Of a stretch of DNA of 64,000 nt, positions 5,601 through 57,869 are shown piece after piece (positions within the stretch are counted from its first letter, which is position 1; every line of letters starts with the position of its first letter). This DNA comes from Escherichia coli. GTDB taxonomy: Bacteria; Pseudomonadota; Gammaproteobacteria; Enterobacterales; Enterobacteriaceae. The position numbers and the translations under genes were made by a program. The stretch lies in NCBI RefSeq assembly GCF_044324785.1, contig NZ_CP172127.1; one strand, written 5' to 3'. The notes beneath the pieces are model-generated. The model saw only the letters and a program-made list of their open reading frames with translations. It was not told the origin of the DNA and made no database searches.

Positions 5601-6173
5601 ATGTCTAAAAAATTAGGTTTTGCCCTGTCTGGTCTAATGCTGGCAATGGTTGCAGGTACTGCTTCTGCTGATATGGACGGTGGTCAGATTAACATCAGTG
5701 GCTTGGTTAGCGATAACACCTGTGAAACAAAAGTTGATGGCGGCAAGCAAGATGGCCTGGTTCTTCTGCAAACTGCAACGGTTGCTGAAATTACCGCTGG
5801 TGTATCTGAAACTGCTGTCGGCGCCAAAGCGAAACCGTTTAGCATTACTGTAGACTGCAGCAAAGCGACTCCGGGAGGCCAACCGACTCTGACATTCGGT
5901 TCAGTCTTCTTTGGTAACAGTCGTGGCACTTTGAATAACGATATGTCCATCACCACCCCGTCATCTGGTGTGAATATCGCCCTGCACAACATTGACGGCA
6001 CCACGGTTAAACAAGTCAAAATTAATAATGCATCTGATGCTTACACTAAAGCATTAACCAATAATGTTGCAGTCTTTGACTTCAAAGCCTCCTATGTTCG
6101 TGAAGACAACTCAACACCAGCAACGGCTGGTTATGTAAGAACCAACACAGCTTACACCATCACCTACAATTAA
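5601..6173 (+). CDS. yadN: fimbrial major subunit, YadN-like
   Basis: [23 protein letters not shown] signal peptide, conserved Cys pair, C-terminal ...[13 protein letters not shown] typical of type 1-like pilins; first gene of the yad chaperone-usher operon. Confidence 0.75.
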
Positions 6174-6265
6174 GTTATTCGTTGGTGATTTAAATTACTA
6201 CAAGGGTGCGACACCTATTGTCGCCCCCTTGTCTTGAAAACAATTCATGTCATGGATGGTATATT

Positions 6266-6997
6266 TTGTTAAATAAAAAGAATATTGTCGCATTATGTGT
6301 TGTCAGTAGTATGGCATTTAGTATGCCTGTTATGGCCGATATTGTTATTTCCGGTACACGCGTCATTTATAAAAGTGATCAAAAAAGCGTTAGCGTACGC
6401 CTGGAGAATAAAGGCAATAGCCACCTGTTAGTACAAAGCTGGCTGGATACCGGTGACGATAACGCTGAGCCAGGAAGCATTAATGTACCATTTACGGCAA
6501 CACCTCCCGTTTCACGTATTGATGCTAAACGCGGTCAAACCATCAAATTGATGTATACCGGCAGTACCGTACTCCCCAGCGATAAAGAAAGCGTATTCTG
6601 GTTTAACGTGCTGGAAGTGCCCCCAAAACCAGATGCTACAAAAGTGGAGAATCAGAGCCTGTTACAACTGGCTTTCCGTACCCGTATCAAGCTGTTCTAT
6701 CGTCCGGCAGGATTAAACGGTAACCCGTCTGAAGCACCATTAGCCCTGAAATGGAAATGGGCTGAAGGGAAGTCTGGCCTGAGTGTATATAACCCAACAC
6801 CTTATTACGTCTCTTTCAACAGCGCAGAGTTAATCGCTGGCGGTAAGTCGAACCCGCTCAACGTAAAAATGATTGCACCGAAAAGCGAAGAGATTTTCAC
6901 CATAAGCGGTTCAGGCGGGAAAGCAACGTCAGGAAAGGTACATTTCTCAGCGATCAATGATTTTGGCGGCGCAATTGAAGGCGATGTCAATTTGTAA
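6266..6997 (+). CDS. yadV: periplasmic fimbrial chaperone (PapD-like), YadV/EcpD-like
   Basis: Mature part ADIVISGTRVIYKSDQKSVSVRLENKGNSHLLVQSWLD... is PapD-family; no in-frame ATG gives a signal peptide, so the start is TTG 6266 (SD-like ggatgg upstream) or GTG 6206. Confidence 0.7.
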   Translation: MLNKKNIVALCVVSSMAFSMPVMADIVISGTRVIYKSDQKSVSVRLENKGNSHLLVQSWLDTGDDNAEPGSINVPFTATPPVSRIDAKRGQTIKLMYTGSTVLPSDKESVFWFNVLEVPPKPDATKVENQSLLQLAFRTRIKLFYRPAGLNGNPSEAPLALKWKWAEGKSGLSVYNPTPYYVSFNSAELIAGGKSNPLNVKMIAPKSEEIFTISGSGGKATSGKVHFSAINDFGGAIEGDVNL

Positions 6998-7031
6998 GAC
7001 CAGGGACCTTATGCAGCAGGAAGCCAATGTA

Positions 7032-9632
7032 ATGAAAACAACGACATCGACTAAACGCCATAATCTTACGCGTATCGCAATGTATTGCTCAATTATGTAT
7101 AGCGGCGCTACCATCGGAGCCGAAAGCGTTGAGTATGACCCTACCTTTTTAATGGGTGGCAACGCTTCCAGTATTGATGTTAGCCGCTATAGCGATGGCA
7201 ACCCGACTTTGCCTGGTGTTTACGATGTTAGCATCTATGTTAACGAGCAACCTGTTGCTAACCTGGAGATCCCCTTTATCGCGATCCCCGAAAAAAAGAA
7301 TGCTCAAGCCTGTATTACCCTGAAAAATCTACTACAACTTCATATCAAGCCCCCCCCGGCAGACGAGGAAAATACTATCCTTCTTCCACGGGATGAAACG
7401 CTTGGCAACTGTCTTGACCTGTCGTTAGCCATACCTAAATCCTCAGTGAGCTATGACCCCTCTGAACAACGTCTGGATATCAATGTTCCCCAGGCGTGGG
7501 TGATGAAGAATTATCAAAACTATGTGGACCCATCACTTTGGGAAAATGGCATTAACGCGGCTACGCTGTCTTATAACATCAACGCTTATCGCAGTGAAAA
7601 TTCAAATTATACAAATGATAGCGTTTATACATCGTTCAATGGTGGCGTCAATTTAGGTGCCTGGCGTCTGCGTAGCAGCGGTAACTATAGCTGGAGAAAC
7701 GACGCGGGAAGCAATGTTGAGTTTATGAATCGCTACGTCCAGCGCGACATTACCGCTATTCGCTCGCAGCTCATTATGGGGGAATCCTACACCACAGGTG
7801 AAACGTTCGATTCCGTTAGTATCCGCGGCATTCGCTTATACAGCGATAGCCGAATGCTGCCGCCAGTATTGGCAAACTTCGCCCCAACAATTCGTGGTGT
7901 AGCGAATACCAACGCCAAAGTCAGCATTACCCAGGGTGGATACAAAATTTATGAAACCACTGTTCCACCGGGACCTTTTGTCATTGATGATCTCAGTCCG
8001 TCAGGGTATGGCAGCGATCTTATCGTAACCATTGAAGAAGCTGATGGCAGCAAGCGTACATTTTCTCAGCCATTTTCTTCAGTAATTCAAATGCTGCGCC
8101 CGGGTGTTTCTCGCTGGGATATCAGCGGCGGGCAAATTAATAAAGACGACTTGCATCATGAACCAAACTTACTACAAGCGACCTATTACCGTGGTTTAAG
8201 TAACCTGTTCACTGGCTATACTGGTTTTCAGGTCACAGATAATCATTATGCTGCAGGCTTACTTGGCATTGGGATGAATACTTCTGTCGGCGCAATTTCC
8301 TTCGATGTCACCCACTCCAGTGTCGATATACCGGATGATAAAAGGTACCAGGGGCAAAGCTATCGCATCTCCTGGAACAAATTTTTTGACCTGACAGATA
8401 CATCATTAAACATCGCGGCTTACCGCTACTCCACGCAGGACTATCTGGGCCTGAATGATGCATTAACACTTATTGATGAAGTTGAACATCCCACTCAGGA
8501 TCTTGATCCCAAAACTATGCGCAACTACGGGCGCATGAAAAACCAGTTCACCGTAAGCATTAACCAACCGCTACGCTTTGGGAAGGATGATTATGGCTCG
8601 TTCTATACCTCTGGAAGCTGGTCTGATTACTGGGGGGGCGGTAAGAGCCGTAGCAACTATTCGGTCGGCTACAGTAACAGCGCTTCATGGGGAAGCTACA
8701 GTATCAGCGCTCAACGATCCTGGGATGAGTACAGCCAAACAGAAAACAGTATTTACCTCAGCTTTTCGATACCTATCGAAAAACTGATGGGTACGGAGCA
8801 CCGTGATTCCGGTTTCCAAAGTATTGATACACAACTTAGTACCAATATGGATGGTAATAATCAGTTCAACATGAGCAGTAGCGGTTATAGCAACGATAAT
8901 CGCGTGAGCTATAGCGTGAACGCGGGTTATGGGATGAATAAAACCGGCAAAGATCTCAGCAACATCGGGGGTTATGCCAGCTATGAATCGCCATGGGGAA
9001 CGCTAGCTGGGTCAGTCTCTGCTACCAGCGATAATAACCGCCAGTACTCCGTTAATACAGATGGTGGATTTGTGTTGCACAGCGGAGGACTTACGTTCAG
9101 CAACGACAGTTTCAGTGATAATGACACCATTGCTCTGGTTAAAGCACCGGGTGCAAAAGGGGCGCGTATTAACTACGGCAACAATACCGTTGACCGTTGG
9201 GGATATGGCGTAACCAGTGCTCTTTCACCATACCAGGAAAACAAAATTGCTCTGGACACTGAAAACCTGGAAAACGACATCGAAATGAAGAGCACCAGTA
9301 CAGTTGCCGTACCACGCCAGGGCTCGGTTATCTTTGCTGGTTTTGAAACCAATCAGGGACAATCTGCGATTATGAATATCAAACGCAGTGACGGAAAAGG
9401 TATCCCCTTCGCCGCCGATATTCATGATGAAACAAATGCAATCATTGGCAACGTTGGGCAGGGCGGGCAGGCATTTGTTCGCGGTATTCAGCAGCAGGGC
9501 ACGATAAAAATCACCTGGCTGGAAGCCAGCATGCCCAAAACCTGTATTGCGCAGTACCAGCAACCCAATGTGACATCGGAGAAAATCCAGCAAACGATTA
9601 TTCTCAATAATATTCTTTGCCAGCTCCAATAA
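7032..9632 (+). CDS. htrE: outer-membrane fimbrial usher, HtrE-like
   Basis: MKTTTSTKRHNLTRIAMYCS... about 866 aa with usher motifs (ITQGGYKIYETTVPPGPFVIDDLSPSGYGSDL); start ATG at 7032 preferred over the track start 6957. Confidence 0.85.
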   Translation: MKTTTSTKRHNLTRIAMYCSIMYSGATIGAESVEYDPTFLMGGNASSIDVSRYSDGNPTLPGVYDVSIYVNEQPVANLEIPFIAIPEKKNAQACITLKNLLQLHIKPPPADEENTILLPRDETLGNCLDLSLAIPKSSVSYDPSEQRLDINVPQAWVMKNYQNYVDPSLWENGINAATLSYNINAYRSENSNYTNDSVYTSFNGGVNLGAWRLRSSGNYSWRNDAGSNVEFMNRYVQRDITAIRSQLIMGESYTTGETFDSVSIRGIRLYSDSRMLPPVLANFAPTIRGVANTNAKVSITQGGYKIYETTVPPGPFVIDDLSPSGYGSDLIVTIEEADGSKRTFSQPFSSVIQMLRPGVSRWDISGGQINKDDLHHEPNLLQATYYRGLSNLFTGYTGFQVTDNHYAAGLLGIGMNTSVGAISFDVTHSSVDIPDDKRYQGQSYRISWNKFFDLTDTSLNIAAYRYSTQDYLGLNDALTLIDEVEHPTQDLDPKTMRNYGRMKNQFTVSINQPLRFGKDDYGSFYTSGSWSDYWGGGKSRSNYSVGYSNSASWGSYSISAQRSWDEYSQTENSIYLSFSIPIEKLMGTEHRDSGFQSIDTQLSTNMDGNNQFNMSSSGYSNDNRVSYSVNAGYGMNKTGKDLSNIGGYASYESPWGTLAGSVSATSDNNRQYSVNTDGGFVLHSGGLTFSNDSFSDNDTIALVKAPGAKGARINYGNNTVDRWGYGVTSALSPYQENKIALDTENLENDIEMKSTSTVAVPRQGSVIFAGFETNQGQSAIMNIKRSDGKGIPFAADIHDETNAIIGNVGQGGQAFVRGIQQQGTIKITWLEASMPKTCIAQYQQPNVTSEKIQQTIILNNILCQLQ

Positions 9633-9644
9633 TACGAAAGAGAG

Positions 9645-10211
9645 ATGACAATGATAAAAAACTCACGGTATAAAATAGTACTCCTGACAGGCATTTTTTT
9701 ACTGCCCGGCGCACTGGCACAAGATATTAATGTTGATTTTGTTGCCACAATCAAAGGCACGACATGTAATATCACTCTGGAAGGGACACGCGTCACCGCT
9801 GATGGAAATAATCAGTACACGCTACGGATATTAAATGTTGCTCTGGATAAAATCATAAACAAGATGCCAGAAGCACAAGCCGACTTTAAACTGGTCGCTA
9901 ATTGTGATGGTAACATAGGCAAGATTACGACATCGCTGGCAGGGAATCCTTCAGGAGAGTTACCCTATTTAATTTCTCCATTAACTTCAGATAATTCATC
10001 CACCACAGAATATATTGCTATGGGGATTAAACTTCGAAATACCTCTGACACTGAATTTATTCCCCCAGATGGTTCTAAAAAGATTTCCTGGGGAGAGGGA
10101 TTAACAAAACCGGAACTTGAGATGACGGTAGCACTTCGCGAAACCCGACCAGGTTCAGGAAGAGCAGGTAGTTTTAAAGCACTTGCGACATTCAATTTCA
10201 CCTATGAATAA
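9645..10211 (+). CDS. yadM: fimbrial minor subunit, YadM-like
   Basis: 188 aa, signal peptide MTMIKNSRYKIVLLTGIFLLPGALA, pilin-like C-terminus ...ALATFNFTYE. Confidence 0.7.
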   Translation: MTMIKNSRYKIVLLTGIFLLPGALAQDINVDFVATIKGTTCNITLEGTRVTADGNNQYTLRILNVALDKIINKMPEAQADFKLVANCDGNIGKITTSLAGNPSGELPYLISPLTSDNSSTTEYIAMGIKLRNTSDTEFIPPDGSKKISWGEGLTKPELEMTVALRETRPGSGRAGSFKALATFNFTYE

Positions 10212-10224
10212 AAGGATAATAATA

Positions 10225-10824
10225 ATGCAGATGAAATCATTACATTATGGGATATTTGCAAGCATTACTCTGAGCTTATTATTATTCAGCACGTTTTCTA
10301 TAGCCATCACTGATAACATTGGCCTAAACGTTATGACCATTGTTGAAAACAGAACTTGTCAAAGCGAAATCAACAACCAGGGGTTGGTTAATCTTGGCAC
10401 TGTTGGAGTGGGATATTTTGCCAGTAATGTTAGTGCGGAAGATAATTATCCAGGCGGAAAAACCTTTACTGTGACAGTAAAAGATTGCCCCTCCGCTGGC
10501 ACAACATCAAGTCAGTTGCATATAGAATTTAAACCTGTCAGTGGTGTAATGGCCACTGGTAGCCAACAGATATTCGCCAATAATCATGTCGGCGGCGCAC
10601 AAAATGTAGGAATCGTTATTTTTAGCCAAAATAATCAGTCATCGGATACAGTGAATGTGCTGTCACCAACAGGGCAGTTTCGCACGGTCTGGCCTGTTGT
10701 CTCTGCGAATATGAATAATTCATCGTGGCAATTTTATACACGAATGCAGAAAATAGATCCGTTACTCCCGGTTGGTGCAGGATTTGTTACCAGTAACGTA
10801 TTAGTTGATATTTATTATCAATAA
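10225..10824 (+). CDS. fimbrial minor subunit (YadL/YadK-like)
   Basis: ATG at 10225 behind SD aaaagga; MQMKSLHYGIFASITLSLLLFSTFSIA signal peptide; pilin fold cysteines; ends ...VLVDIYYQ. Confidence 0.65.
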   Translation: MQMKSLHYGIFASITLSLLLFSTFSIAITDNIGLNVMTIVENRTCQSEINNQGLVNLGTVGVGYFASNVSAEDNYPGGKTFTVTVKDCPSAGTTSSQLHIEFKPVSGVMATGSQQIFANNHVGGAQNVGIVIFSQNNQSSDTVNVLSPTGQFRTVWPVVSANMNNSSWQFYTRMQKIDPLLPVGAGFVTSNVLVDIYYQ

Positions 10825-10877
10825 TTATGCTAAGCATAATGCTTCTACAAATATTATTTTTTCAAAGGAGTGATAAG

Positions 10878-25081: not shown

Positions 25082-25170
25082 GCCGCAGACACAATTTAAT
25101 CGACAATAATGGTCGTCGCCTCGCTCGCAGTGTGCTAACGTTTATCTTCTTTAAGCCCCAGGTAGAAGCA

Positions 25171-25518
25171 ATGAAGACGTTTTTCAGAACAGTGTTATTC
25201 GGCAGCCTGATGGCCGTCTGCGCAAACAGTTACGCGCTCAGCGAGTCTGAAGCCGAAGATATGGCCGATTTAACGGCAGTTTTTGTTTTTCTGAAGAACG
25301 ATTGTGGTTACCAGAACTTACCTAACGGGCAAATTCGTCGCGCACTGGTCTTTTTTGCCCAGCAAAACCAGTGGGATCTCAGTAATTACGACACCTTCGA
25401 CATGAAAGCCCTCGGTGAAGACAGCTACCGCGATCTCAGCGGCATTGGCATTCCCGTCGCTAAAAAGTGCAAAGCCCTGGCTCGCGATTCCTTAAGCCTG
25501 CTTGCCTACGTCAAATAA
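25171..25518 (+). CDS. yacC: periplasmic protein YacC
   Basis: MKTFFRTVLFGSLMAVCANSYALSESEAED... 115 aa with signal peptide; track ORF is over-extended upstream. Confidence 0.85.
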   Translation: MKTFFRTVLFGSLMAVCANSYALSESEAEDMADLTAVFVFLKNDCGYQNLPNGQIRRALVFFAQQNQWDLSNYDTFDMKALGEDSYRDLSGIGIPVAKKCKALARDSLSLLAYVK

Positions 25519-25623: not shown

Positions 25624-26490
25624 ATGGCCGAAAAAAAACAGTGGCATGAAACGCTACACGACCAGTTTGGGCAGTACTTTGCGGTAGATAACGTTCTGTA
25701 TCATGAAAAGACCGATCACCAGGATCTGATCATTTTTGAGAACGCCGCATTTGGCCGCGTAATGGCGCTGGATGGCGTAGTACAAACCACCGAGCGCGAC
25801 GAGTTTATCTATCATGAGATGATGACCCATGTTCCGCTACTGGCCCACGGTCACGCGAAACATGTGCTGATTATCGGCGGCGGCGACGGTGCCATGCTGC
25901 GTGAAGTAACCCGACATAAAAACGTTGAGTCAATCACGATGGTGGAAATCGATGCGGGTGTCGTGTCGTTCTGCCGTCAGTATCTACCCAACCATAACGC
26001 CGGTAGCTACGACGATCCGCGCTTTAAACTGGTGATCGACGATGGCGTCAATTTCGTTAATCAAACCAGCCAGACCTTTGATGTCATTATCTCCGACTGC
26101 ACCGATCCTATCGGTCCCGGCGAAAGTCTGTTCACCTCAGCATTTTATGAAGGATGCAAACGTTGCCTGAATCCTGGCGGTATCTTCGTCGCACAAAACG
26201 GCGTCTGCTTTTTACAGCAGGAAGAGGCTATCGACAGTCATCGCAAACTCAGCCATTACTTCAGCGATGTTGGCTTTTATCAGGCGGCGATCCCGACCTA
26301 TTACGGCGGCATCATGACCTTTGCATGGGCGACAGATAACGACGCCTTACGCCATCTCTCAACCGAAATTATTCAGGCGCGTTTTCTCGCCTCTGGCCTG
26401 AAATGCCGTTATTACAATCCGGCAGTCCATACGGCAGCTTTTGCCTTACCCCAGTATCTGCAAGACGCACTGGCTTCACAGCCGTCCTAA
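25624..26490 (+). CDS. speE: spermidine synthase
   Basis: [40 protein letters not shown]... and [11 protein letters not shown] motif, 288 aa. Confidence 0.95.
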
Positions 26491-43264: not shown

Positions 43265-44218
<954 letters not shown>

Positions 44219-44420
44219 TTGCTGACAGATTTATCCGCTCCATCGCGGGCGGATAATCTCCCCTTTCCCAATTTTCTTCGTAACGCCTCGCAAATTTCTT
44301 GTCTTTCGCTGCAACGTAATAAAAAACTCCGGAAGCTGCTTTCCCGTTTCGTTTTTTGCCCCTCGCTTGTGCTGATGGCGTTTGCCAAAGTAGCGCCAAC
44401 CAAATCAAGGAGCGAAACAA

Positions 44421-44861
44421 ATGGACAAGCAACGCGGTTTTACACTTATCGAACTGATGGTGGTTATTGGCATCATTGCCATTTTAAGCGCCATTGGTAT
44501 TCCCGCTTATCAAAACTACCTGCGCAAAGCCGCACTCACCGACATGCTACAAACCTTTGTGCCTTACCGTACCGCCGTAGAGTTGTGCGCGCTGGAACAT
44601 GGTGGATTAGATACCTGCGACGGTGGCAGTAATGGCATCCCCTCGCCTACCACCACCCGCTATGTTTCAGCCATGAGTGTGGCAAAGGGCGTGGTGTCGC
44701 TGACCGGGCAAGAAAGTCTCAATGGGCTAAGCGTCGTCATGACGCCGGGTTGGGATAACGCAAACGGCGTCACCGGTTGGACGCGCAACTGCAATATTCA
44801 AAGTGACAGCGCATTGCAGCAAGCCTGCGAAGATGTCTTTCGCTTTGATGACGCCAACTAA
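44421..44861 (+). CDS. ppdD: type IV prepilin (prepilin peptidase-dependent protein D)
   Basis: MDKQRGFTLIELMVVIGIIAIL... class III signal (G|FTLIE) of type IV pilins, 146 aa. Confidence 0.93.
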   Translation: MDKQRGFTLIELMVVIGIIAILSAIGIPAYQNYLRKAALTDMLQTFVPYRTAVELCALEHGGLDTCDGGSNGIPSPTTTRYVSAMSVAKGVVSLTGQESLNGLSVVMTPGWDNANGVTGWTRNCNIQSDSALQQACEDVFRFDDAN

Positions 44862-44870
44862 GGAGCGGCA

Positions 44871-46256
44871 ATGAATATTCCACAGCTCACCGCCCTGTGT
44901 CTGCGTTATCAGGGAGTCTTGCTGGATGCCAGCGAAGAGGTGGTTCATGTTGCGGTAGTCGATGCACCTTCGCATGAGCTACTGGACGCATTGCATTTCG
45001 CTACCACCAAACGTATTGAGATCACCTGCTGGACGCGCCAACAGATGGAAGGTCACGCCAGTCGCACACAACAGACATTGCCCGTAGCTATTCATGAGAA
45101 GCATCAGCCCAAAGCAGAGTTGCTGACTCGAACGTTACAATCTGCGCTGGAACAACGCGCGTCTGATATTCATATCGAACCAGCGAACAATGCCTACCGC
45201 ATCCGCTTGCGTATCGACGGCGTATTGCATCCTTTACCGGATGTTTCACCGGATGCCGGAGTCGCATTAACCGCCAGATTAAAAGTGCTGGGAAACCTGG
45301 ATATTGCGGAACATCGCCTGCCGCAGGACGGGCAATTCACTGTCGAACTGGCAGGAAACGCCGTCTCATTTCGTATTGCGACCTTACCATGTCGGGGTGG
45401 TGAAAAGGTGGTATTAAGGTTGTTACAGCAGGTGAGCCAGGCACTGGATGTCAACACGCTGGGAATGCAGCCGTTACAACTGGCGGACTTTGCTCATACA
45501 TTGCAACAACCACAGGGATTGGTGCTGGTAACTGGCCCTACAGGCAGCGGCAAAACGGTCACGCTTTATAGTGCCCTGCAAACGCTGAATACCGCTGACA
45601 TTAATATTTGTAGCGTCGAAGATCCGGTTGAGATCCCCATAGCCGGACTAAACCAGACGCAAATCCATCCGCGTGCCGGACTCACCTTTCAGGGCGTTTT
45701 GCGTGCGTTATTGCGCCAGGACCCTGACGTCATCATGATCGGAGAGATCCGCGATGGCGAAACAGCAGAGATCGCTATTAAAGCCGCGCAAACCGGTCAC
45801 CTGGTGTTGTCCACGCTACACACCAACTCCACCTGCGAAACGCTGGTACGTTTACAGCAAATGGGAGTCGCCCGCTGGATGCTCTCATCAGCGCTTACGC
45901 TGGTAATAGCCCAGCGTCTGGTACGCAAACTTTGCCCACATTGTCGCCGACAGCAAGGGGAGCCAATCCATATTCCAGACAATGTATGGCCGTCGCCGCT
46001 GCCCCGCTGGCAAGCACCCGGTTGTGTACATTGCTACCACGGTTTTTATGGTCGTACGGCCTTATTTGAAGTTCTACCCATAACACCGATCATACGCCAG
46101 CTTATTTCCGCTAATACCGACGTTGAATCGCTGGAAACACACGCCCGACAGGCGGGTATGCGTACGCTTTTTGAAAACGGCTGCCTGGCCGTGGAGCAAG
46201 GCTTAACCACCTTTGAAGAGTTAATCCGCGTATTGGGGATGCCGCATGGCGAGTAA
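44871..46256 (+). CDS. hofB: type IV pilus assembly ATPase (GspE/PilB family)
   Basis: Walker A GPTGSGKT, tetracysteine CPHC...CVHC, 461 aa. Confidence 0.93.
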   Translation: MNIPQLTALCLRYQGVLLDASEEVVHVAVVDAPSHELLDALHFATTKRIEITCWTRQQMEGHASRTQQTLPVAIHEKHQPKAELLTRTLQSALEQRASDIHIEPANNAYRIRLRIDGVLHPLPDVSPDAGVALTARLKVLGNLDIAEHRLPQDGQFTVELAGNAVSFRIATLPCRGGEKVVLRLLQQVSQALDVNTLGMQPLQLADFAHTLQQPQGLVLVTGPTGSGKTVTLYSALQTLNTADINICSVEDPVEIPIAGLNQTQIHPRAGLTFQGVLRALLRQDPDVIMIGEIRDGETAEIAIKAAQTGHLVLSTLHTNSTCETLVRLQQMGVARWMLSSALTLVIAQRLVRKLCPHCRRQQGEPIHIPDNVWPSPLPRWQAPGCVHCYHGFYGRTALFEVLPITPIIRQLISANTDVESLETHARQAGMRTLFENGCLAVEQGLTTFEELIRVLGMPHGE

Positions 46257-47448
46257 GCAACTCTGGCGCTGGCATGGCATAACCGGCGACGGCAATGCGC
46301 AAGATGGGATGCTATGGGCAGAGAGCCGTGCTTTGCTGCTTATGGCACTACAGCAACAGATGGTTACCCCACTAAGCCTGAAGCGAATCGCCATCAATTC
46401 TGCGCAGTGGCGAGGAGATAAAAGCGCGGAAGTCATTCATCAACTGGCGACGCTACTCAAAGCCGGGTTAACGCTTTCTGAAGGGCTGGCACTGCTGGCG
46501 GAACAGCATCCCAGTAAGCAATGGCAAGCGTTGCTGCAATCGCTGGCGTACGATCTCGAACAGGGCATTGCTTTTTCCAATGCCTTATTACCCTGGTCAG
46601 AGGTATTTCCGCCGCTCTATCAGGCAATGATCCGCACGGGGGAATTGACTGGTAAGTTAGATGAATGTTGCTTTGAACTTGCTCGACAGCAAAAAGTCCA
46701 GCGTCAGTTAGCCGATAAAGTGAAATCAGCGTTGCGTTATCCCATCATCATTTTAGCGATGGCAATCATGGTGGTTGTGGCAATGCTGCATTTTGTGCTG
46801 CCGGAGTTTGCTGCTATTTATAAGACCTTCAACACCCCACTACCGGTACTAACGCAGGGGATCATGACGCTGGCAGACTTTAGTGGCGAATGGGGCTGGC
46901 TGCTGGTGTTGTTCGGCCTTCTGCTGGCGATAGCCAATAAGTTGCTGATGCGCCGCCCGACCTGGCTTATCGCGCGGCAGAAATGGCTGTTACGCATCCC
47001 GATTATGGGTTCACTGATGCGGGGACAAAAACTCACGCAGATCTTTACGATTCTGGCGCTGACTCAAAGTGCAGGCATTACTTTTTTACAGGGCGTTGAG
47101 AGCGTCAGAGAAACAATGCGCTGCCCGTACTGGGTGCAACTTCTGACACAAATCCAGCACGATATCAGTAACGGTCAACCCATCTGGCTGGCGCTAAAAA
47201 ATGCCGGTGAGTTTAGCCCACTCTGTTTGCAATTAGTGAGAACAGGAGAGGCATCCGGCTCGCTGGATCTCATGTTAGACAACCTCGCCCATCATCATCG
47301 GGATAACACAATGGCGCTGGCGGATAACCTCGCAGCCTTACTGGAACCGGCGTTGCTGATCATAACGGGAGGAATTATCGGTACGCTGGTGGTGGCAATG
47401 TATCTGCCAATTTTCCATTTAGGCGATGCGATGAGTGGAATGGGATAA
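46246..47448 (+). CDS. hofC: type IV pilus inner-membrane platform protein (GspF/PilC family)
   Basis: 400 aa with two GspF repeats; overlaps hofB end by 11 nt. Confidence 0.92.
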   Translation: MASKQLWRWHGITGDGNAQDGMLWAESRALLLMALQQQMVTPLSLKRIAINSAQWRGDKSAEVIHQLATLLKAGLTLSEGLALLAEQHPSKQWQALLQSLAYDLEQGIAFSNALLPWSEVFPPLYQAMIRTGELTGKLDECCFELARQQKVQRQLADKVKSALRYPIIILAMAIMVVVAMLHFVLPEFAAIYKTFNTPLPVLTQGIMTLADFSGEWGWLLVLFGLLLAIANKLLMRRPTWLIARQKWLLRIPIMGSLMRGQKLTQIFTILALTQSAGITFLQGVESVRETMRCPYWVQLLTQIQHDISNGQPIWLALKNAGEFSPLCLQLVRTGEASGSLDLMLDNLAHHHRDNTMALADNLAALLEPALLIITGGIIGTLVVAMYLPIFHLGDAMSGMG

Positions 47449-47482
47449 CGCTGGCGTGTTGCTCCACGCCAGCGTTGGGAGA

Positions 47483-48526
47483 TTACAGGTTGTTGAAGAT
47501 GCGGTTTTCTTGTTCCAGCACACGGATAAATGTGGTGCGCTTGGTCAGCTCTTTCAGGCGTGAAGCCCCAACGTATGTACAAGCTGAACGCAGGCCGCCC
47601 AAAATATCACGCGCGGTATTTTCAACCGGGCCTCGCAGCGGCAGCTTAACGGTTTTACCTTCTGCTGCGCGATATTCCGCAACGCCGCCAACGTGACGTT
47701 TCATCGCAGACTCGGAGCTCATGCCGTAGAACAGCATAAATTTCTCGCCGTTCTCCTCAACGATGCGACCGCCGCTCTCTTCGTGGCCCGCCAGCATGCC
47801 GCCAAGCATGACGAAATCGGCACCGCCGCCAAAAGCTTTCGCGACATCGCCCGGCGTGGTGCAGCCACCATCGCTGACGATCATTCCGCCCAGACCGTGC
47901 GCAGCATCGGCACATTCGATTACCGCAGAAAGTTGCGGATAACCGACGCCTGTTTTGACACGAGTTGTACAAACAGAACCTGGGCCAATGCCAACTTTAA
48001 CGATATCGGCACCGGAGAGGATAAGCTCCTCACACATTTCACCAGTCACTACGTTGCCAGCACAAATGGTTTTGGTCGGCCACGCTTCACGCGCTTTCGC
48101 AACGAACTGCACGAAGTGTTCGGAATAACCATTCGCCACATCAATACAAACGAAGTTTAATGCCGGGTTCAGGTCGAGAATCTGTTTAGTTTTTTCGAAA
48201 TCCGCATCAGACGTACCGGTAGAAACCATCACATGTTTCAGCACATCAGCGGAAGAATTGTTGATAAACGCTTGCCACTCTTCGACAGAATAGTGTTTAT
48301 GCACAGCAGTCAAAATATCAAAAGAAGCCAGCGCAGAGGCCATAGAAAATGTGCCTACGGTGTCCATATTTGCGGCGATAATCGGCACGCCGGACCAGCT
48401 CTGACCTGAATGTTTGAAGGTGAATTGACGTTCCAGTTCAACATCGGAACGGCTTTTAAGAGTGGAGCGTTTAGGGCGGATGAGAACGTCTTTAAAACCT
48501 AACTTCAGATCTTCTTCAATACGCAT
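47483..48526 (-). CDS. guaC: GMP reductase
   Basis: [35 protein letters not shown]... IMP-DH/GMPR fold, 347 aa. Confidence 0.95.
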
Positions 48527-48750
48527 GTGCGGATTCCTGGGGTTAATGGCTATAAGGGTAAGAGCGCAACTCCAGTGACGCTATCATACGCACTAATCAA
48601 TGCGGCGCAAGACTGCGAAATTGTCTTTTTTTACGCTACAATCCCATAAATTTACCTGGTAAATAGTGAGCGAACGTTTCATCAATTTCGCTTTCGTGCG
48701 CTCATTTTTAACGTTTTGATAATCATGATGAATTCCCGGGAATATAAATT

Positions 48751-49371
48751 ATGAGGTATATAGTTGCCTTAACGGGAGGCATTGGCAGTGGCAAGAGTAC
48801 CGTTGCCAATGCGTTTGCTGATCTCGGAATTAACGTCATTGATGCCGATATTATTGCGCGTCAGGTGGTTGAACCAGGTGCACCTGCGCTACATGCCATT
48901 GCTGATCACTTTGGCGCTAACATGATTGCTGCTGATGGAACATTGCAGCGCCGGGCCTTGCGCGAGCGGATCTTCGCCAACCCGGAAGAGAAAAACTGGC
49001 TTAACGCCCTGCTGCATCCGCTGATTCAGCAAGAGACGCAACACCAGATCCAGCAAGCAACTTCCCCCTATGTACTGTGGGTTGTGCCATTGCTGGTAGA
49101 AAACTCACTGTATAAAAAAGCGAATCGAGTGCTGGTGGTGGATGTCAGCCCAGAAACGCAACTTAAGCGCACCATGCAGCGCGATGATGTAACTCGCGAG
49201 CATGTCGAACAAATCCTTGCTGCTCAGGCACCGCGCGAAGCTCGCCTTGCCGTGGCAGATGACGTCATTGATAATAACGGCGCACCGGATGCTATCGCAT
49301 CGGATGTTGCCCGCCTGCACGCACACTATTTGCAGCTTGCGTCGCAGTTTGTCTCACAGGAAAAACCGTAA
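48751..49371 (+). CDS. coaE: dephospho-CoA kinase
   Basis: [26 protein letters not shown]... P-loop, 206 aa. Confidence 0.95.
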
Positions 49372-50114
49372 TGCAGACCCAGGTCCTTTTTGAACATCCA
49401 CTAAATGAAAAAATGCGTACATGGCTGCGCATTGAGTTTTTGATTCAGCAACTTACCGTTAATTTACCCATCGTTGACCACGCTGGCGCGCTGCATTTCT
49501 TCCGTAATGTCAGTGAATTACTGGATGTTTTCGAGCGTGGCGAAGTCCGCACTGAGCTGTTGAAAGAACTTGACCGGCAGCAACGTAAACTCCAGACCTG
49601 GATTGGCGTGCCTGGCGTGGACCAGAGCCGTATTGAAGCATTAATTCAGCAGTTAAAAGCGGCGGGGAGCGTATTAATTTCCGCGCCGCGTATCGGGCAA
49701 TTTCTGCGTGAAGATCGTTTGATTGCTCTGGTGCGTCAGCGACTGAGCATCCCAGGCGGCTGTTGTAGCTTTGATTTACCTACATTGCACATTTGGCTGC
49801 ATCTACCCCAGGCGCAGCGCGACAGCCAGGTAGAAACCTGGATTGCCAGCCTGAACCCGCTCACCCAGGCACTTACCATGGTGCTGGATTTAATTCGCCA
49901 GTCGGCCCCCTTCCGTAAACAAACCAGCCTGAATGGTTTTTATCAGGATAACGGTGGCGATGCCGACTTGCTGCGCCTGAATCTGTCACTCGATTCACAG
50001 CTTTATCCGCAAATTTCCGGTCATAAGAGCCGTTTTGCCATTCGTTTTATGCCGCTGGACAGTGAAAACGGACAGGTACCGGAACGTCTGGATTTCGAAC
50101 TGGCCTGTTGCTAA
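49371..50114 (+). CDS. zapD: cell division protein ZapD (YacF)
   Basis: [28 protein letters not shown]... 247 aa; start ATG overlaps coaE TAA by 1 nt. Confidence 0.93.
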
Positions 50115-50327: not shown

Positions 50328-50420
50328 GTCTGATGCGACGCTGGCCTGATAAGACGCGCCAGCGTCGCATCGGGCATCTTGTGCAAATGTTGGATGCGGC
50401 ATAAACGCCTATCCGACATA
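50328..50420. repeat. REP (repetitive extragenic palindrome) cluster between yacG and mutT
   Basis: tgatgcgacgctgg...ccagcgtcgcatc palindrome and a second degenerate unit ggatgcggcataaacgcctatccga matching the REP core GCCGGATGCGGCG family. Confidence 0.8.
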
Positions 50421-50821: not shown

Positions 50822-50850
50822 AAAAAAGGCGCAGAATCCTGCGCCTTTTA
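50822..50850 (-). terminator. Rho-independent terminator after secA
   Basis: Minus strand: stem aaaggcgcag gatt ctgcgccttt followed by ttta. Confidence 0.7.
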
Positions 50851-50866
50851 CTTCAACTGTTAGCTT

Positions 50867-53572
50867 TTATTGCAGGCGACCATGGCACTGCTTGTATTTT
50901 TTACCAGAACCGCACGGGCAAGGATCGTTACGTCCTACTTTGCGCTCACCGGTTTGCGCCGCCAGTGCAGCTGCGGCTGCAGAGTCGTCATCCTGATGGC
51001 TAAGCTGCTGCATTTGCGCTAAACGCTCGGCTTCCATACGACGCTGTTGTTCCAGCTCCTCAACCTCTTCAGGCATACGTACCTGAACTTTGCTCAGCGT
51101 GCTGATAACTTCATATTTCAACGACTCCAGCATCGCTGCAAACATGGAGAACGATTCACGTTTGTATTCCTGCTTCGGATCTTTCTGTGCATAGCCACGC
51201 AGGTGGATACCCTGACGCAGATAGTCCATCGCTGCCAGGTGCTCTTTCCACAGGGAGTCAAGCGTTTGCAGCATGACGCCTTTCTCGAAGTGACGCATCA
51301 TCTCAGCACCAACCACTTCTTCTTTACGCTGATACACTTCGATGGACTGCGCCAGAATGCGCTCACGCAGCGTCTCTTCATGCAGTTCTGGTTCTTTATC
51401 CAGCCACTCGGCAATTGGCAAATCGAGGTCGAAATCGTTCTTCAGACGTTCCTGCAGCCCCGGAATATCCCACATTTCTTCCAGCGACTGTGGCGGAATG
51501 TAGGCATCAATGGTCGCTTTGAACACATCTTCACGAATGCTGTTGATGGTTTCGCTCACATCGCTGACATCCAACAGTTCGTTACGCTGGGAGTAAATGG
51601 CGCGACGCTGATCGTTAGCCACGTCATCATATTCCAGCAGTTGCTTACGAATGTCGAAGTTACGACTTTCAACTTTACGCTGGGCGTTGGCAATCGCTTT
51701 AGTCACCCACGGGTGTTCAATGGCTTCGCCTGGCTTCATACCCAGTTTACGCATCATGCCGGATACTCGGTCGGAAGCAAAAATACGCATCAGCGCATCT
51801 TCCATCGACAGGTAGAAACGGGAAGAACCAGCATCCCCCTGACGACCAGAACGACCGCGCAACTGGTTATCGATACGACGGGATTCGTGACGCTCGGTAC
51901 CGATGATATGCAGGCCACCTGCTGCCAGTACCGCATCGTGACGTACCTGCCAGTCGGCTTTAATTTTTTCAATTTGCTCTGCGGTCGGATTTTCCAGCGC
52001 GGCAACTTCTGCCTGCCAGCTACCACCGAGCACAATATCTGTACCACGACCCGCCATGTTGGTCGCGATAGTCACCGCAGCCGGATAACCTGCCTGAGCA
52101 ACAATCGCCGCTTCGTTGGCATGGAATTTGGCGTTCAGGACATTGTGCTTAATACCGGCTTTGGTCAGTTCGTTTGACACCAGCTCCGATTTTTCGATGG
52201 AGATAGTACCCACCAGCACCGGCTGGCCTTTCGCAGTACGCTCTTTGATATCTTCAATGATCGCCTGAATTTTTTCCGCTTCAGTCATGTAGACCAGGTC
52301 CGGCAGATCTTTACGAATCATTGGACGGTTGGTCGGAACAACGACGGTATCCAGCTTGTAGATGGAGCTGAATTCGAAAGCTTCGGTATCAGCAGTACCG
52401 GTCATCCCCGCCAGTTTTTCATACAGACGGAAGTAGTTCTGGAAAGTGATCGACGCCAGCGTCTGGTTTTCGTTCTGGATCTGTACACCTTCTTTCGCTT
52501 CCACAGCCTGGTGCAGGCCATCGGACCAACGACGTCCCTGCATGGTACGACCGGTGTGTTCGTCAACGATGATAACTTCACCATCTTTAACGATGTAGTC
52601 GACGTCTCGGGTAAACAGCGCATGAGCGCGCAGCGCCGCCGTTACGTGGTGCATCAGCATGATGTTGGCCGGAGAGTACAGAGACTCCCCTTCATCCATG
52701 ATGCCTTCTTTCACCAGCAGTTCTTCAATCAGCACCAGACCACGTTCGGTCAGGTTCACCTGGCGAGATTTTTCGTCCACCGAGAAGTGGCCTTCGCCCT
52801 GGAAGGTTTCGGAGTCTTCTTTTTCCTGACGGATCAGGTGCGGAATAATTTTATTCACGCGTTTATACATTTCCGAGCTGTCTTCTGCCGGGCCGGAAAT
52901 GATCAGCGGTGTACGCGCTTCATCGATCAGGATGGAGTCCACTTCGTCCACCAGCGCATAGTGCAGTTTACGCTGTACACGTTCTTCAGGGCTGAACGCC
53001 ATGTTATCGCGCAGGTAGTCAAAGCCGTATTCGTTGTTCGTACCGTAAGTGATGTCAGCTGCGTAAGCTTCACGCTTCGCCGGTGCTGGCATGCCCGGCA
53101 GGTTGATACCGACAGTCAGGCCAAGGAATTCAAACAGCGGACGGTTGTTTTCGGCGTCACGTTGCGCCAGGTAGTCGTTGACGGTAACAACGTGTACGCC
53201 CTTACCGGTTAATGCGTTCAGGTAAGCAGGCAGCGTTGCGGTCAGGGTTTTACCTTCACCGGTACGCATTTCGGCGATGCAGCGTTCGTTAAGAACCATA
53301 CCGCCGAGTAACTGAACGTCGAAGTGACGCATACCAAAGACGCGCTTACTTGCCTCACGCACCACGGCGAAAGCTTCCGGGATCAGATTTTCCAGCACTT
53401 CGCCTTTTTCCAGACGTGCACGAAACTCTGCGGTTTTCCCTTTCAGTTCTTCGTCGGAGAGTTTTTCCATCTCCGGTTCCATGGCATTGATGATGTTGAC
53501 CACTTTGCGCATCCGGCGCAGGGTGCGATCGTTACGACTACCGAAAACTTTAGTTAATAATTTGATTAGCAT
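50867..53572 (-). CDS. secA: preprotein translocase ATPase SecA
   Basis: [43 protein letters not shown]... 901 aa, C-terminal zinc-binding [14 protein letters not shown]. Confidence 0.97.
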
Positions 53573-55394: not shown

Positions 55395-56546
55395 TTAATC
55401 AGCTTGCTTACGCAGGAATGCTGGGATATCCAGATAATCCGGCTCTTTCGCAGTTTGCGGTGCATTGTCATTCACGACTTTAGCAACCGGCTTCTGCTCC
55501 TGGGTCAGCGGAGCCATCCCGTGCTGCTGGTAGCGATCCATCACTGGCTGCTGAACCTGCTTATTGGTCACCAGAGTGATTTCAGGACGTTTGTCCATGC
55601 CGATACCTGTCGCAACAACAGTTACGCGCAGCTCGTCATTCATATCCGGGTCAAGAGAAGTACCGATAACCACAGTCGCGTTGTCGGAAGCAAATGCACG
55701 GATGGTGTTACCTACCGTTTCGAACTCATCCAGACGCAGGTCGAAGCCCGCCGTGATGTTAACCAGCACGCCGCGTGCGCCAGACAGGTCGATATCTTCC
55801 AGCAGCGGAGAAGAGATAGCCATTTCAGCAGCTTCTTCCGCACGGTCTTCACCACTCGCCACGCCAGAACCCATCATTGCGTAGCCCATTTCAGACATTA
55901 CGGTGCGTACGTCTGCAAAGTCCACGTTCATCAAACCCGGACGAGTAATCAGTTCAGCGATACCTTGCACAGCGCCTTTCAGTACATCGTTCGCTGCGCC
56001 AAACGCATCCAGCAGGGAGATACCGCGGCCCAGAACTTTCAGCAGTTTGTCGTTCGGGATAGTGATCAGAGAGTCCACATGTTTGGACAGTTCAGTGATC
56101 CCCTGCTCCGCGAATGCCATACGCTTCTTGCCTTCAAAGTTGAAAGGCTTAGTGACGACAGCAACGGTCAGGATACCCAAATCTTTTGCCACTTCAGCGA
56201 CGACTGGTGCTGCACCTGTACCGGTACCACCACCCATACCCGCTGCGATAAAGACCATGTCTGCACCTTCCAGCGCCGCACGCAGTGCATCGCGATCCTC
56301 ATCAGCCGCATTACGGCCAACTTCTGGATTAGCGCCAGCGCCCAGTCCTTTGGTGATACCGCTACCGATTTGAATCGTCTGTCCAACCGCTGTTTTACGC
56401 AGCGCTTGTGCATCGGTATTTACCGCGAAGAATTCAACACCTTCAATGCGCTCGCGCACCATGTGTTCAACAGCATTACCGCCGCCGCCGCCGACGCCGA
56501 TGACTTTAATCACCGCGTCATTGGTAAGTTCCATTGGTTCAAACAT
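55395..56546 (-). CDS. ftsZ: cell division GTPase FtsZ
   Basis: [30 protein letters not shown]... tubulin signature [10 protein letters not shown], 383 aa. Confidence 0.98.
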
Positions 56547-56606
56547 AGTTTCTCTCCGATTTGTGCCTGTCGCCTGAGGCCGTAATCATCGTCGGCCTCA
56601 TAAAAA

Positions 56607-57869
56607 TTAAAACTCTTTTCGCAGCCAACTATTGAGTCGCTTGATCCACGAGCCAACTGATGCTGTAACACGTTTTTCTACTTCAGCTTCACCGTTAAGA
56701 TGTGACTCTTTCCCATAGTGAAGCAATCCCACCGCCGTCGAATAATACGGCTCCTGAGCATAATCCGTTAAACCGGTAATGTTCAGCGGCGCGCCGATAC
56801 GCACTTGCGTATGAAACACGCGCTGAGCACAGGCTGCAAGACCTTCGATCTGCGCTGCGCCACCAGTTAAAACAATGCCTGCCGCCAGGTGATGTTTAAC
56901 CCCTTGTTGGCGAAGCTTTTCCTGCAACTGCAATATCTCTTCGTTGACCAGGTTGAGCAGCTCGGTATAGCGCGGCTCGATCACCTCTGCCAGGGTCTGA
57001 CGTTGCAGACTCCGCGGCGGACGACCACCTACGCTCGGCACTTCCACGCTCTCATCTTTTCCAACGATGGAACCCAGCGCACAACCGTGGCGAACTTTAA
57101 TCGCTTCGGCGTCGCTTGGCGGCGTGCCAAAGGCGTAAGCGATATCACTGGTCACGACATTGCCAGCATAAGGAATTACCTTAGTGTGGCGCAATGCCCC
57201 ACCGGTATAAACGGCGATATCCATTGTACCACCACCGATATCGACGACGCAGACACCCAGTTCACGTTCATCTTCCGTCAATACCGAATAACTTGATGCC
57301 AGTCCGGCAAATATCAGTTGGTCAACTTTCAGCCCACAACGTTCAACCGCTTTGACGATGTTTTTCGCCATATCGTTGTGACATGTGATCAGGTGCACTT
57401 TTGCCTGCATCCTCACGCCCGAAAGTCCTACCGGATTCTTGATCCCTTCCTGATAGTCAATCGCATACTCTTGCGGGATCACATGCAGCACACGATGCTC
57501 ATCGCGCACACGCACCGATTTCGCGGTATGGACGACGTTTTCCACATCTTCTTGCGTCACTTCTTCTTCAGAAATAGGCACCATACCAATTTCATTCTGG
57601 CAGCTGATGTGCTTACCAGAAAGCGCCAGATATACCGAAGAGATCTGACAATCTGCCATCAATTCTGCCTGGTCAATGGCGCGTTGTACGCACTTGACCA
57701 CGGATTCGAGGTCGTTCACCCCGCCTTTATCCATACCACGTGACGGGCAGCTGCCCACGCCAATGATATTGACCATACCGTCGGGCAGAACTTCCCCTAC
57801 TAAAGCGGCAACCTTCGCGGTACCAATCTCCAGTCCTACTACCAGTTTTCTGTCCGTCGCCTTGATCAT
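56607..57869 (-). CDS. ftsA: cell division protein FtsA (actin-like ATPase)
   Basis: [53 protein letters not shown]... 420 aa. Confidence 0.97.

Follow-up and report, generated by a model that had tools for sequence, protein, structure and literature searches.

What is the ppdD-hofB-hofC locus of Escherichia coli, found in the 64,000-nucleotide stretch of contig NZ_CP172127.1 analysed here (the window): a whole type IV pilus and DNA-uptake system, one part of such a system, or a relic? And which DNA element switches it on? We are highly confident that positions 44219-47477 form the E. coli ppdD-hofB-hofC operon, controlled by Sxy and CRP through a CRP-S site at 44274-44295 and incomplete on its own. 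The cryptic operon is already known, and its Sxy/CRP regulation was published in 2006-2009; the integrity of the genes, their motifs, the CRP-S site with its rank and conservation, and the purifying selection acting on the locus were computed here. A sequence-only reading of the same DNA had named the three genes correctly, called the operon complete and silent, and predicted a CRP-S site somewhere within 44219-44420.

The CRP-S site upstream of ppdD

In strain K-12, Sxy induces ppdD 90-fold; induction is abolished in crp or cyaA mutants, and the gene is repressed by glucose (PMC1635313). Binding of CRP in vitro is weak, and CRP shifts a fragment equivalent to window positions 44208-44338 in an electrophoretic mobility shift assay (Cameron & Redfield 2006, PMC1635313), the primers ppdDF and ppdDR of that study corresponding to exactly this interval. 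In the middle of this fragment lies the site that we locate, ATTTGCGAGGCGTTACGAAGAA (44274-44295, minus strand). Its core reads TGCGA-N6-ACGAA, with the centre at 44284.5, 136.5 bp upstream of the ATG; the conserved half is directed toward ppdD, C6 and G17 are both present, and the site is not a palindrome. The 22-mer is identical in K-12, and with it the published induction and mobility shift data bear out the assignment of the operon to the Sxy/CRP-S regulon. By analogy with the identical K-12 site, cyclic AMP-bound CRP and its co-activator Sxy would bind this low-affinity, non-palindromic element and bring about transcription. CRP is described as acting through AR1 and through a second, distinct surface that interacts with Sxy, with contact between CRP and Sxy (PMC6728893); because it uses both surfaces, activation would be class I-like.

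The sequence-only reading had looked for the site by eye and proposed a scan with TGCGA-N6-TCGCA. This palindrome is the Haemophilus form and is therefore unsuitable for E. coli, whose CRP-S sites are asymmetric, combining a conserved TGCGA half with a degenerate half, both of them required for Sxy dependence (PMC6728893). In the same study, a Psxy construct given two conserved half-sites showed high activity with or without Sxy. Allowing up to two mismatches, the scan returned a sole intergenic match, TTCGTAACGCCTCGCA at 44277-44292, which is the ppdD CRP-S site. Canonical CRP sites are absent from 44219-44420: the best match to TGTGA-N6-TCACA there agrees at 6/10 positions and is the CRP-S site itself.

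For an asymmetric model, ten other K-12 Sxy-regulon promoters were taken and the sites with a perfect TGCGA half were listed. A matrix was built from the six promoters giving one clear site each (ybaV, ycaI, yhgH, yifB, sxy and sbmC), with ppdD excluded. The ppdD site scores 10.2, which is rank 3 among the 127,958 positions of the 64-kb window, and its score is reached by 6/632 overlapping 202-bp window tiles, so that a CRP-S-like site above background is present upstream of the operon. Only two window positions outscore it, both on the minus strand: 49328-49349, at the 3' end of coaE and 22-43 bp before the start of zapD, and 26175-26196, in the speE region at about 26.2 kb. Both are probably chance matches. 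The same matrix locates the hofM site at the end of the yrfD fragment, agreeing with PMC1635313, and the sxy site, ATTTGCGAGGCTCTTTCCGAAA, has the halves TGCGA and TTCCG described for Psxy (PMC6728893).

Conservation was examined in 24 orthologous Enterobacterales ppdD promoters, recovered through HofB. In 15 of the 24, among them genera in which the intergenic DNA is otherwise unalignable, the best matrix match falls 131.5-139.5 bp upstream of the ATG, and in most of these 15 species no background tile equals the score.

Several points weigh against this placement of the site. The palindromic scan showed no enrichment in the window (27 matches versus 43.7 expected). The training sites were chosen by a perfect TGCGA half, which biases the matrix toward that half. 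The score of the ppdD site is reached by 93/2000 dinucleotide shuffles of the intergenic region, a modest figure. Finally, the identity of 44274-44295 with the published CRP-S site is deduced from primer positions. Single-sequence support for the site is thus real but modest, and it is conservation that makes the case. What the search yields in practice is an exact coordinate for the CRP-S site and a warning that asymmetric E. coli sites are missed by palindromic scans.

Gene content, integrity and boundaries of the operon

The three genes all lie on the plus strand. ppdD (hcpA in enterohaemorrhagic E. coli, EHEC; K-12 b0108) occupies 44421-44861 and encodes a type IVa major prepilin of 146 aa; hofB (b0107; 44871-46256) encodes a PilB-type pilus assembly ATPase of 461 aa, and hofC (b0106; 46246-47448) a PilC-type inner-membrane platform protein of 400 aa. 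The chromosomal type IVa pilus to which they belong, with HofB as its extension ATPase, is the competence-type pilus of the Sxy regulon and goes by the name haemorrhagic coli pilus (HCP) in EHEC. The locus was found in 5424/5426 complete E. coli genomes, where it is annotated as ppdD, "gspE" (that is, hofB) and hofC.

The sequence-only reading had reported an intact class III leader with its cleavage site, intact Walker A and tetracysteine motifs and an unbroken platform gene, all of which held up. The PpdD leader, MDKQRG/FTLIELMVV (MDKQRG/FTLIELMVVIGIIAILSAIGIPAY), is short and basic, with Gly(-1), Phe(+1) and Glu(+5) followed by a hydrophobic alpha1-N segment. The protein matches N_methyl PF07963 (E 2.5e-10), TIGR02532 (E 4e-9) and NF007862 (269 bits, cut-off 138), while the Pfam Pilin domain, at 21.6 bits, falls just below its 22-bit cut-off. 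Residues 7-146 are identical at 139/140 positions to PDB 6GV9, the EHEC pilus filament subunit, and because the 6GV9 chain begins at F7, cleavage is placed between G6 and F7 as had been stated. Four cysteines stand at mature positions 50, 60, 118 and 130.

HofB carries Walker A GPTGSGKT at 222, the Asp box VEDPVE at 249, Walker B VIMIGEIR at 287, the His box GHLVLSTLHT at 309 and a tetracysteine motif made of CPHC 355-358 and CVHC 385-388. It matches T2SSE PF00437 (E 1e-145) and passes its own equivalog NF007755 (820 bits, cut-off 617). Against the PilB equivalog TIGR02538 it reaches 485 bits, under the cut-off of 676, and the alignment starts at profile position 169/564; judging by these matches, HofB is a shortened PilB-type ATPase that would lack about 100 N-terminal PilB residues. 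HofC contains two T2SSF repeats (PF00482, E 1.3e-55), and its residues 1-399 align to positions 1-401 of NF007861 at 657 bits, that is, over the full length of the profile. Its length equals that of K-12 HofC, so the gene carries no frameshift.

Given these domain families, the genes could be taken for a remnant of a type II secretion system, a set of GspE, GspF and a pseudopilin, a reading that we hold to be very improbable. The RefSeq/PGAP label on HofB, "gspE: type II secretion system protein GspE", points that way and is found in essentially all E. coli genomes. HofB does score 456 bits on TIGR02533 (GspE) and HofC 267 bits on TIGR02120 (GspF), yet each falls short of its family threshold (630 and 424, respectively), while the equivalogs specific to HofB and to HofC are passed. 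The top solved homologues are pilus proteins, PilB for HofB (5ZFR, 5TSG) and Myxococcus xanthus PilC for HofC (3JC8, E 5.5e-43). Going by the title of Sauvonnet 2000 as cited in PMC3330819, over-expressed PpdD can be assembled by a type II secretion system; PpdD nevertheless forms a true type IV pilus, as seen in the cryo-electron microscopy structure 6GV9, and its partners hofMNOPQ are of the PilMNOPQ type. The "gspE" label is a naming artefact of the NF007755 model title and misleads when attached to an ATPase of a type IV pilus.

These partners are what the window lacks. Pilus assembly requires thirteen genes at four loci (bioRxiv 10.1101/856302), of which the operon supplies only 3/13, so the description of the system as complete does not stand. 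The remaining genes, hofMNOPQ, ppdA-ppdB-ygdB-ppdC as well as gspO for the prepilin peptidase, lie outside the window; the K-12 positions are 3.52 Mb for hofMNOPQ and 2.96 Mb for ppdAB-ygdB-ppdC. Genes for a secretin, PilMNOP, minor pilins or a prepilin peptidase do not occur in the annotation of the whole window. PpdD would accordingly be cut between G6 and F7 by a prepilin peptidase encoded elsewhere, and HofB and HofC would polymerise it only with the products of hofMNOPQ and ppdAB-ygdB-ppdC from the other loci. The gene yacC, at 25159-25506 (plus strand), carries the annotation "YacC family pilotin-like protein"; nothing evident connects it with the ppdD system.

The silence attributed to the operon holds for ordinary culture, where PpdD was made by 0/72 ECOR strains (PMC3330819); the operon is off there because Sxy is not made. 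It does not hold everywhere, since EHEC EDL933 produces the HCP pilus in Minca medium, and EHEC is reported to use it for adherence (PMC2920817). The evidence for a role in DNA uptake is indirect: transformation is Sxy-inducible and hofQ-dependent and needs lambda Red, and ppdD, hofB and hofC mutants are absent from that study (PMC3330819).

Could a locus so rarely expressed be a decaying, functionless relic whose CRP-S-like match arose by chance? Expression is not seen in standard culture (PMC1635313, PMC3330819), the single-sequence statistics of the site are modest as described above, and the hofB/hofC nucleotide divergence is roughly threefold that of the flanks (dS, the synonymous divergence, of about 0.10 versus 0.04-0.06; about 97% versus at least 99% identity across genomes). 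The proteins tell otherwise. Compared with K-12, all three lengths are equal and there are 0 amino-acid changes in PpdD, 9 in HofB and 11 in HofC; the ratio of nonsynonymous to synonymous divergence (dN/dS) is still low, at 0 for ppdD, 0.087 for hofB and 0.120 for hofC, next to about 0.03 for nadC and guaC. With frameshifts and stops also absent, these low ratios indicate silent genes maintained by purifying selection. The CRP-S site and several promoter blocks are kept across otherwise unalignable genera, Sxy induces processed pilin, hofQ-dependent DNA uptake has been demonstrated (PMC3330819), and the pilus is made by EHEC (PMC2920817). A relic is, in our view, scarcely credible, and the operon is better regarded as one of four loci of a system whose silent genes are maintained by selection.

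The hofB-hofC allele of the window (44871-47448) is rare: only strain N3 is at least 99% identical to it, and the other approximately 5420 complete genomes are about 96-97% identical, while the adjacent guaC-zapD segment (47483-50114) is at least 99% identical in 4255 genomes. N3 (NZ_CP031609.1) is the closest complete genome at the locus, with 1 mismatch in 3351 nt, located at 47302 and changing HofC residue 353 (D in the window, N in N3 and E in K-12). Identity of the window to N3 is just 97.5-98.8% upstream of about 42.5 kb, and 6158-12154, which holds yad fimbrial usher and subunit genes, gave no alignment to N3 in the blastn pass. The near-identical locus, the lower identity upstream and the unaligned yad genes together point to a recombinational mosaic.

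As for boundaries, the nadC stop codon TGA at 44216-44218 precedes the intergenic region, 44219 being the first base past it; the hofC stop codon ends at 47448, with guaC running toward it from 47483. The genes are tightly packed, with a gap of 9 nt between ppdD and hofB and an overlap of 11 nt between hofB and hofC; the start of hofC inside the end of hofB suggests translational coupling. A hairpin after the nadC stop (44227-44259, plus strand; RNA fold -16 kcal/mol, weak z of -1.87) is identical in K-12, and GC-rich hairpins with T-runs occupy the same place in other genera, directly abutting the CRP-S site. It is likely the nadC terminator and would keep read-through from nadC out of ppdD. 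At the other end, a perfect, GC-rich 13-bp hairpin (47446-47477) fills the 34-bp gap between the convergent hofC and guaC; it folds at -23.2 kcal/mol (z -3.78), a value that none of 200 shuffles matches, lacks a T-run on both sides and is likely a bidirectional transcript end. From the tight packing, the hairpin after nadC and the strong hairpin before guaC we infer one transcription unit and the boundaries of the operon.

An Rfam search gave no match in or near the operon. Elsewhere in the window, matches at gathering score were obtained to PssrA at 56538-56627 (minus strand, ftsA-ftsZ junction), tp2 at 38956-39069 (plus strand, beside pdhR/aceE), STnc40 at 50822-50891 (minus strand, mutT-secA) and naRNA4/CssrE at 50343-50418 (minus strand, yacG-mutT); these four are unrelated to the operon.

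Conserved promoter blocks and the core promoter

Between the CRP-S site and the ATG, an alignment of 17 genera contains five conserved blocks. Nearest to the site is the CTGCAAC box (44309-44315, plus strand), which starts 24.5 bp downstream of the CRP-S centre and is nearly invariant in the 17 genera. It is followed by CGGAA-N6-TTCCC (44330-44345, a palindrome without strand), a weak CRP-like element centred at 44337.5, 53 bp from the CRP-S centre. This is the second-best intergenic matrix match, with a score of 4.7 and 4/10 agreement with the CRP consensus; its GAA...TTC is kept across genera, and Enterobacter-like species have a canonical TCAC(A/G) half. The third block, TTTTTTGCCCCTCGC (T6-GCCCCTCGC; 44352-44366, plus strand), is the most conserved intergenic stretch. 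Further on, TGcCAAAGT (44383-44391, plus strand) resembles an extended -10 element: the T, G, C, A, A and T that fall exactly on the TGn-nAnAnT positions do not vary among the 17 genera. The last is the ppdD Shine-Dalgarno sequence, AAGGAG (44407-44412, plus strand), 8 nt before the ATG and kept in all orthologues.

Two RNA-level explanations of these blocks were considered and set aside. The ribosome-binding region has AGGAGCGA at 44408-44415, to which TTGCCCCT (44356-44363) is complementary, and RNAalifold proposes a long-range helix of 7 pairs between block 44352-44366 and the Shine-Dalgarno sequence; its energy is weak, only -0.57 kcal/mol, with 1 compensatory pair, and a leader RNA element is for this reason not claimed. 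A GGAAG...CTTCC hairpin with a T-run was tried as an attenuator; the stem falls to 3-4 bp in other genera. Its bases are conserved and do not covary, which points to a site acting at the DNA level.

Where, then, does transcription begin? A sigma-70 consensus scan of 44100-47600 gave no promoter (2.9 expected), and by eye the spacing in 44296-44400 fits none of the sigma-54, sigma-32, sigma-E and sigma-28 elements. Among the papers open to search, a mapped ppdD transcription start was not found. We infer class I-type activation geometry, in which CTGCAA (44309-44314) would be the -35 element, CRP would be centred at about -60, and the transcript would start at about 44345 with a leader of about 76 nt. 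Class I distances are those expected for CRP-S sites (PMC1635313, PMC6728893), and the CTGCAA box occurs at the same offset in K-12 ppdA, hofM and ybaV, so that in four promoters it is placed exactly as a -35 element would be with CRP at about -60.

This geometry is not free of difficulties. The -10 element that it implies, GAAGCT at 44332-44337, is poor and has no conserved T at position 6, and if the core promoter lay about 50 bp closer to ppdD, the CRP-S site would be at about -113, outside the classical class I positions. In such an alternative architecture, which we regard as possible while leaning against it, 44383-44391 would be the extended -10, transcription would start at about 44398 with a 23-nt leader, and the CRP-S site would be distal at about -113.5. 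Jointly with this, and with the same reserve, CGGAA-N6-TTCCC would be the proximal of two CRP-type sites, at about -60.5, and TGCAAC between them would bind a third protein such as CytR or Sxy, on the pattern of the CRP-CytR-CRP cassettes of nucleoside genes. The invariance of TG-n-CA-n-A-n-T in the 17 genera speaks for this arrangement, as set against a class I-implied GAAGCT without a conserved T6, and so does the 53-bp distance between the two CRP-type sites of ppdD, which compares with 49-53 nt in CytR cassettes (PMC4581735). Speaking against it, in E. coli the proximal palindrome is weak, as its score and consensus agreement given above indicate, and a Psxy construct with two degenerate half-sites is inactive (PMC6728893). 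A shared -10 register was sought in eight Sxy promoters. Two peaks, each with 6/8 promoters, lie about 46 and about 112 from the site start and are not significant after multiple testing. Both core-promoter models retain the same genes, the same regulon and the same CRP-S site.

The box itself extends beyond ppdD. Boxes of the TGCAAC type lie just gene-side of the CRP-S sites of ppdD, ppdA, hofM, yhgH, ybaV and sbmC, and exact TGCAAC has 6 copies in 5/9 Sxy promoters versus 0.10 expected, the motif having been picked post hoc, which counts against the weight placed on it for a third protein. Among 92 gene-like upstream regions there are 3 matches, two of them belonging to the Sxy-regulon genes yhgH and sbmC. 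The ppdA and hofM promoters have two boxes each, 10 bp apart, or one helical turn, and CytR operator octamers, AYGTGCAAC, include direct repeats (PMC3454398). Weak CRP-like sites 53 bp from the CRP-S site are found, besides ppdD, in ybaV, yhgH and hofM. The ppdA start (K-12 record 2964177, minus strand) reads CATACT-N6-ATG and has no Shine-Dalgarno sequence; its mRNA may be leaderless, beginning at its own ATG, which fits a start at the same register as the downstream core promoter of ppdD. In Vibrio cholerae, the promoters of pilA, pilM, the minor pilins and comEA need CytR together with TfoX, and those of pilF and dprA do not (PMC4581735). The paired boxes, the +53 sites, the ppdA start and this CytR requirement all count in favour of the alternative architecture.

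The TGCAAC box could thus serve as a -35 element, as a CytR-type operator or the box of another protein, or as a contact for Sxy, and a -35 role accounts for part of the pattern. That the ppdD, ppdA, hofM, yhgH and ybaV promoters are laid out as CRP-CytR-CRP cassettes and not as simple CRP-S promoters seems to us unlikely. CRP-S promoters have been described as being without apparent shared sites for other factors (Cameron & Redfield 2006, PMC1635313); the TGCAAC boxes across Sxy promoters are absent from that paper and may be novel. If they do bind CytR, or are the DNA contact of Sxy, nucleoside availability would gate the cryptic competence pilus of E. coli, in parallel with the unexplained V. 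cholerae requirement for CytR, and this would help to explain the scant DNA uptake obtained from sxy induction alone. The boxes, the CRP-like site at +53 and the extended -10-like element are a possible lead on non-Sxy control of competence genes and on the reason for their silence.

Comparison with known systems

The closest counterpart is K-12 itself, in which ppdD-hofB-hofC has the same genes, order, lengths and flanks, PpdD is 146/146 identical, and every conserved promoter block is identical to the window along with the 22-bp CRP-S site. It differs by 10 substitutions in the intergenic region, all outside the CRP-S core, and in the hofBC DNA, which is only about 97% identical, as with nearly all other complete genomes. 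The HCP pilin of EHEC O157:H7 (PDB 6GV9, 6GMS) shares the cleavage site and all four cysteines; one mature residue differs, T in the window and in K-12 and A in the EHEC chain, and HCP expression is reported for EHEC.

Further afield, the same core of pilin, PilB and PilC is found in pilABCD of Haemophilus influenzae and V. cholerae and in pilA/pilBCD of Pseudomonas, and control by CRP and Sxy/TfoX via CRP-S-type sites extends over the Pasteurellaceae, Enterobacteriaceae and Vibrionaceae (PMC1635313). Unlike these pil operons, the E. coli operon has no prepilin peptidase gene (pilD).

At the level of the promoter, the E. coli sxy CRP-S site (Jaskolska & Gerdes 2015; Sondberg 2019, PMC6728893) shares its first 11 nt, ATTTGCGAGGC, with ppdD, has the same orientation, with the conserved half gene-proximal, and is centred at the same -136.5 from the start codon. 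The two differ in the degenerate half, TTCCG in sxy and ACGAA in ppdD, and in the CTGCAAC box, which is present in ppdD and absent from sxy. The CRP-CytR-CRP cassettes of deoP2, cdd, udp and nupG resemble ppdD in having two CRP-type sites 53 bp apart around a TGCAA(C) box (PMC3454398, PMC4581735), a likeness that does not place ppdD among them; in ppdD, by contrast, a CRP-S site takes the distal position, its proximal partner is very weak, and a single box is conserved.

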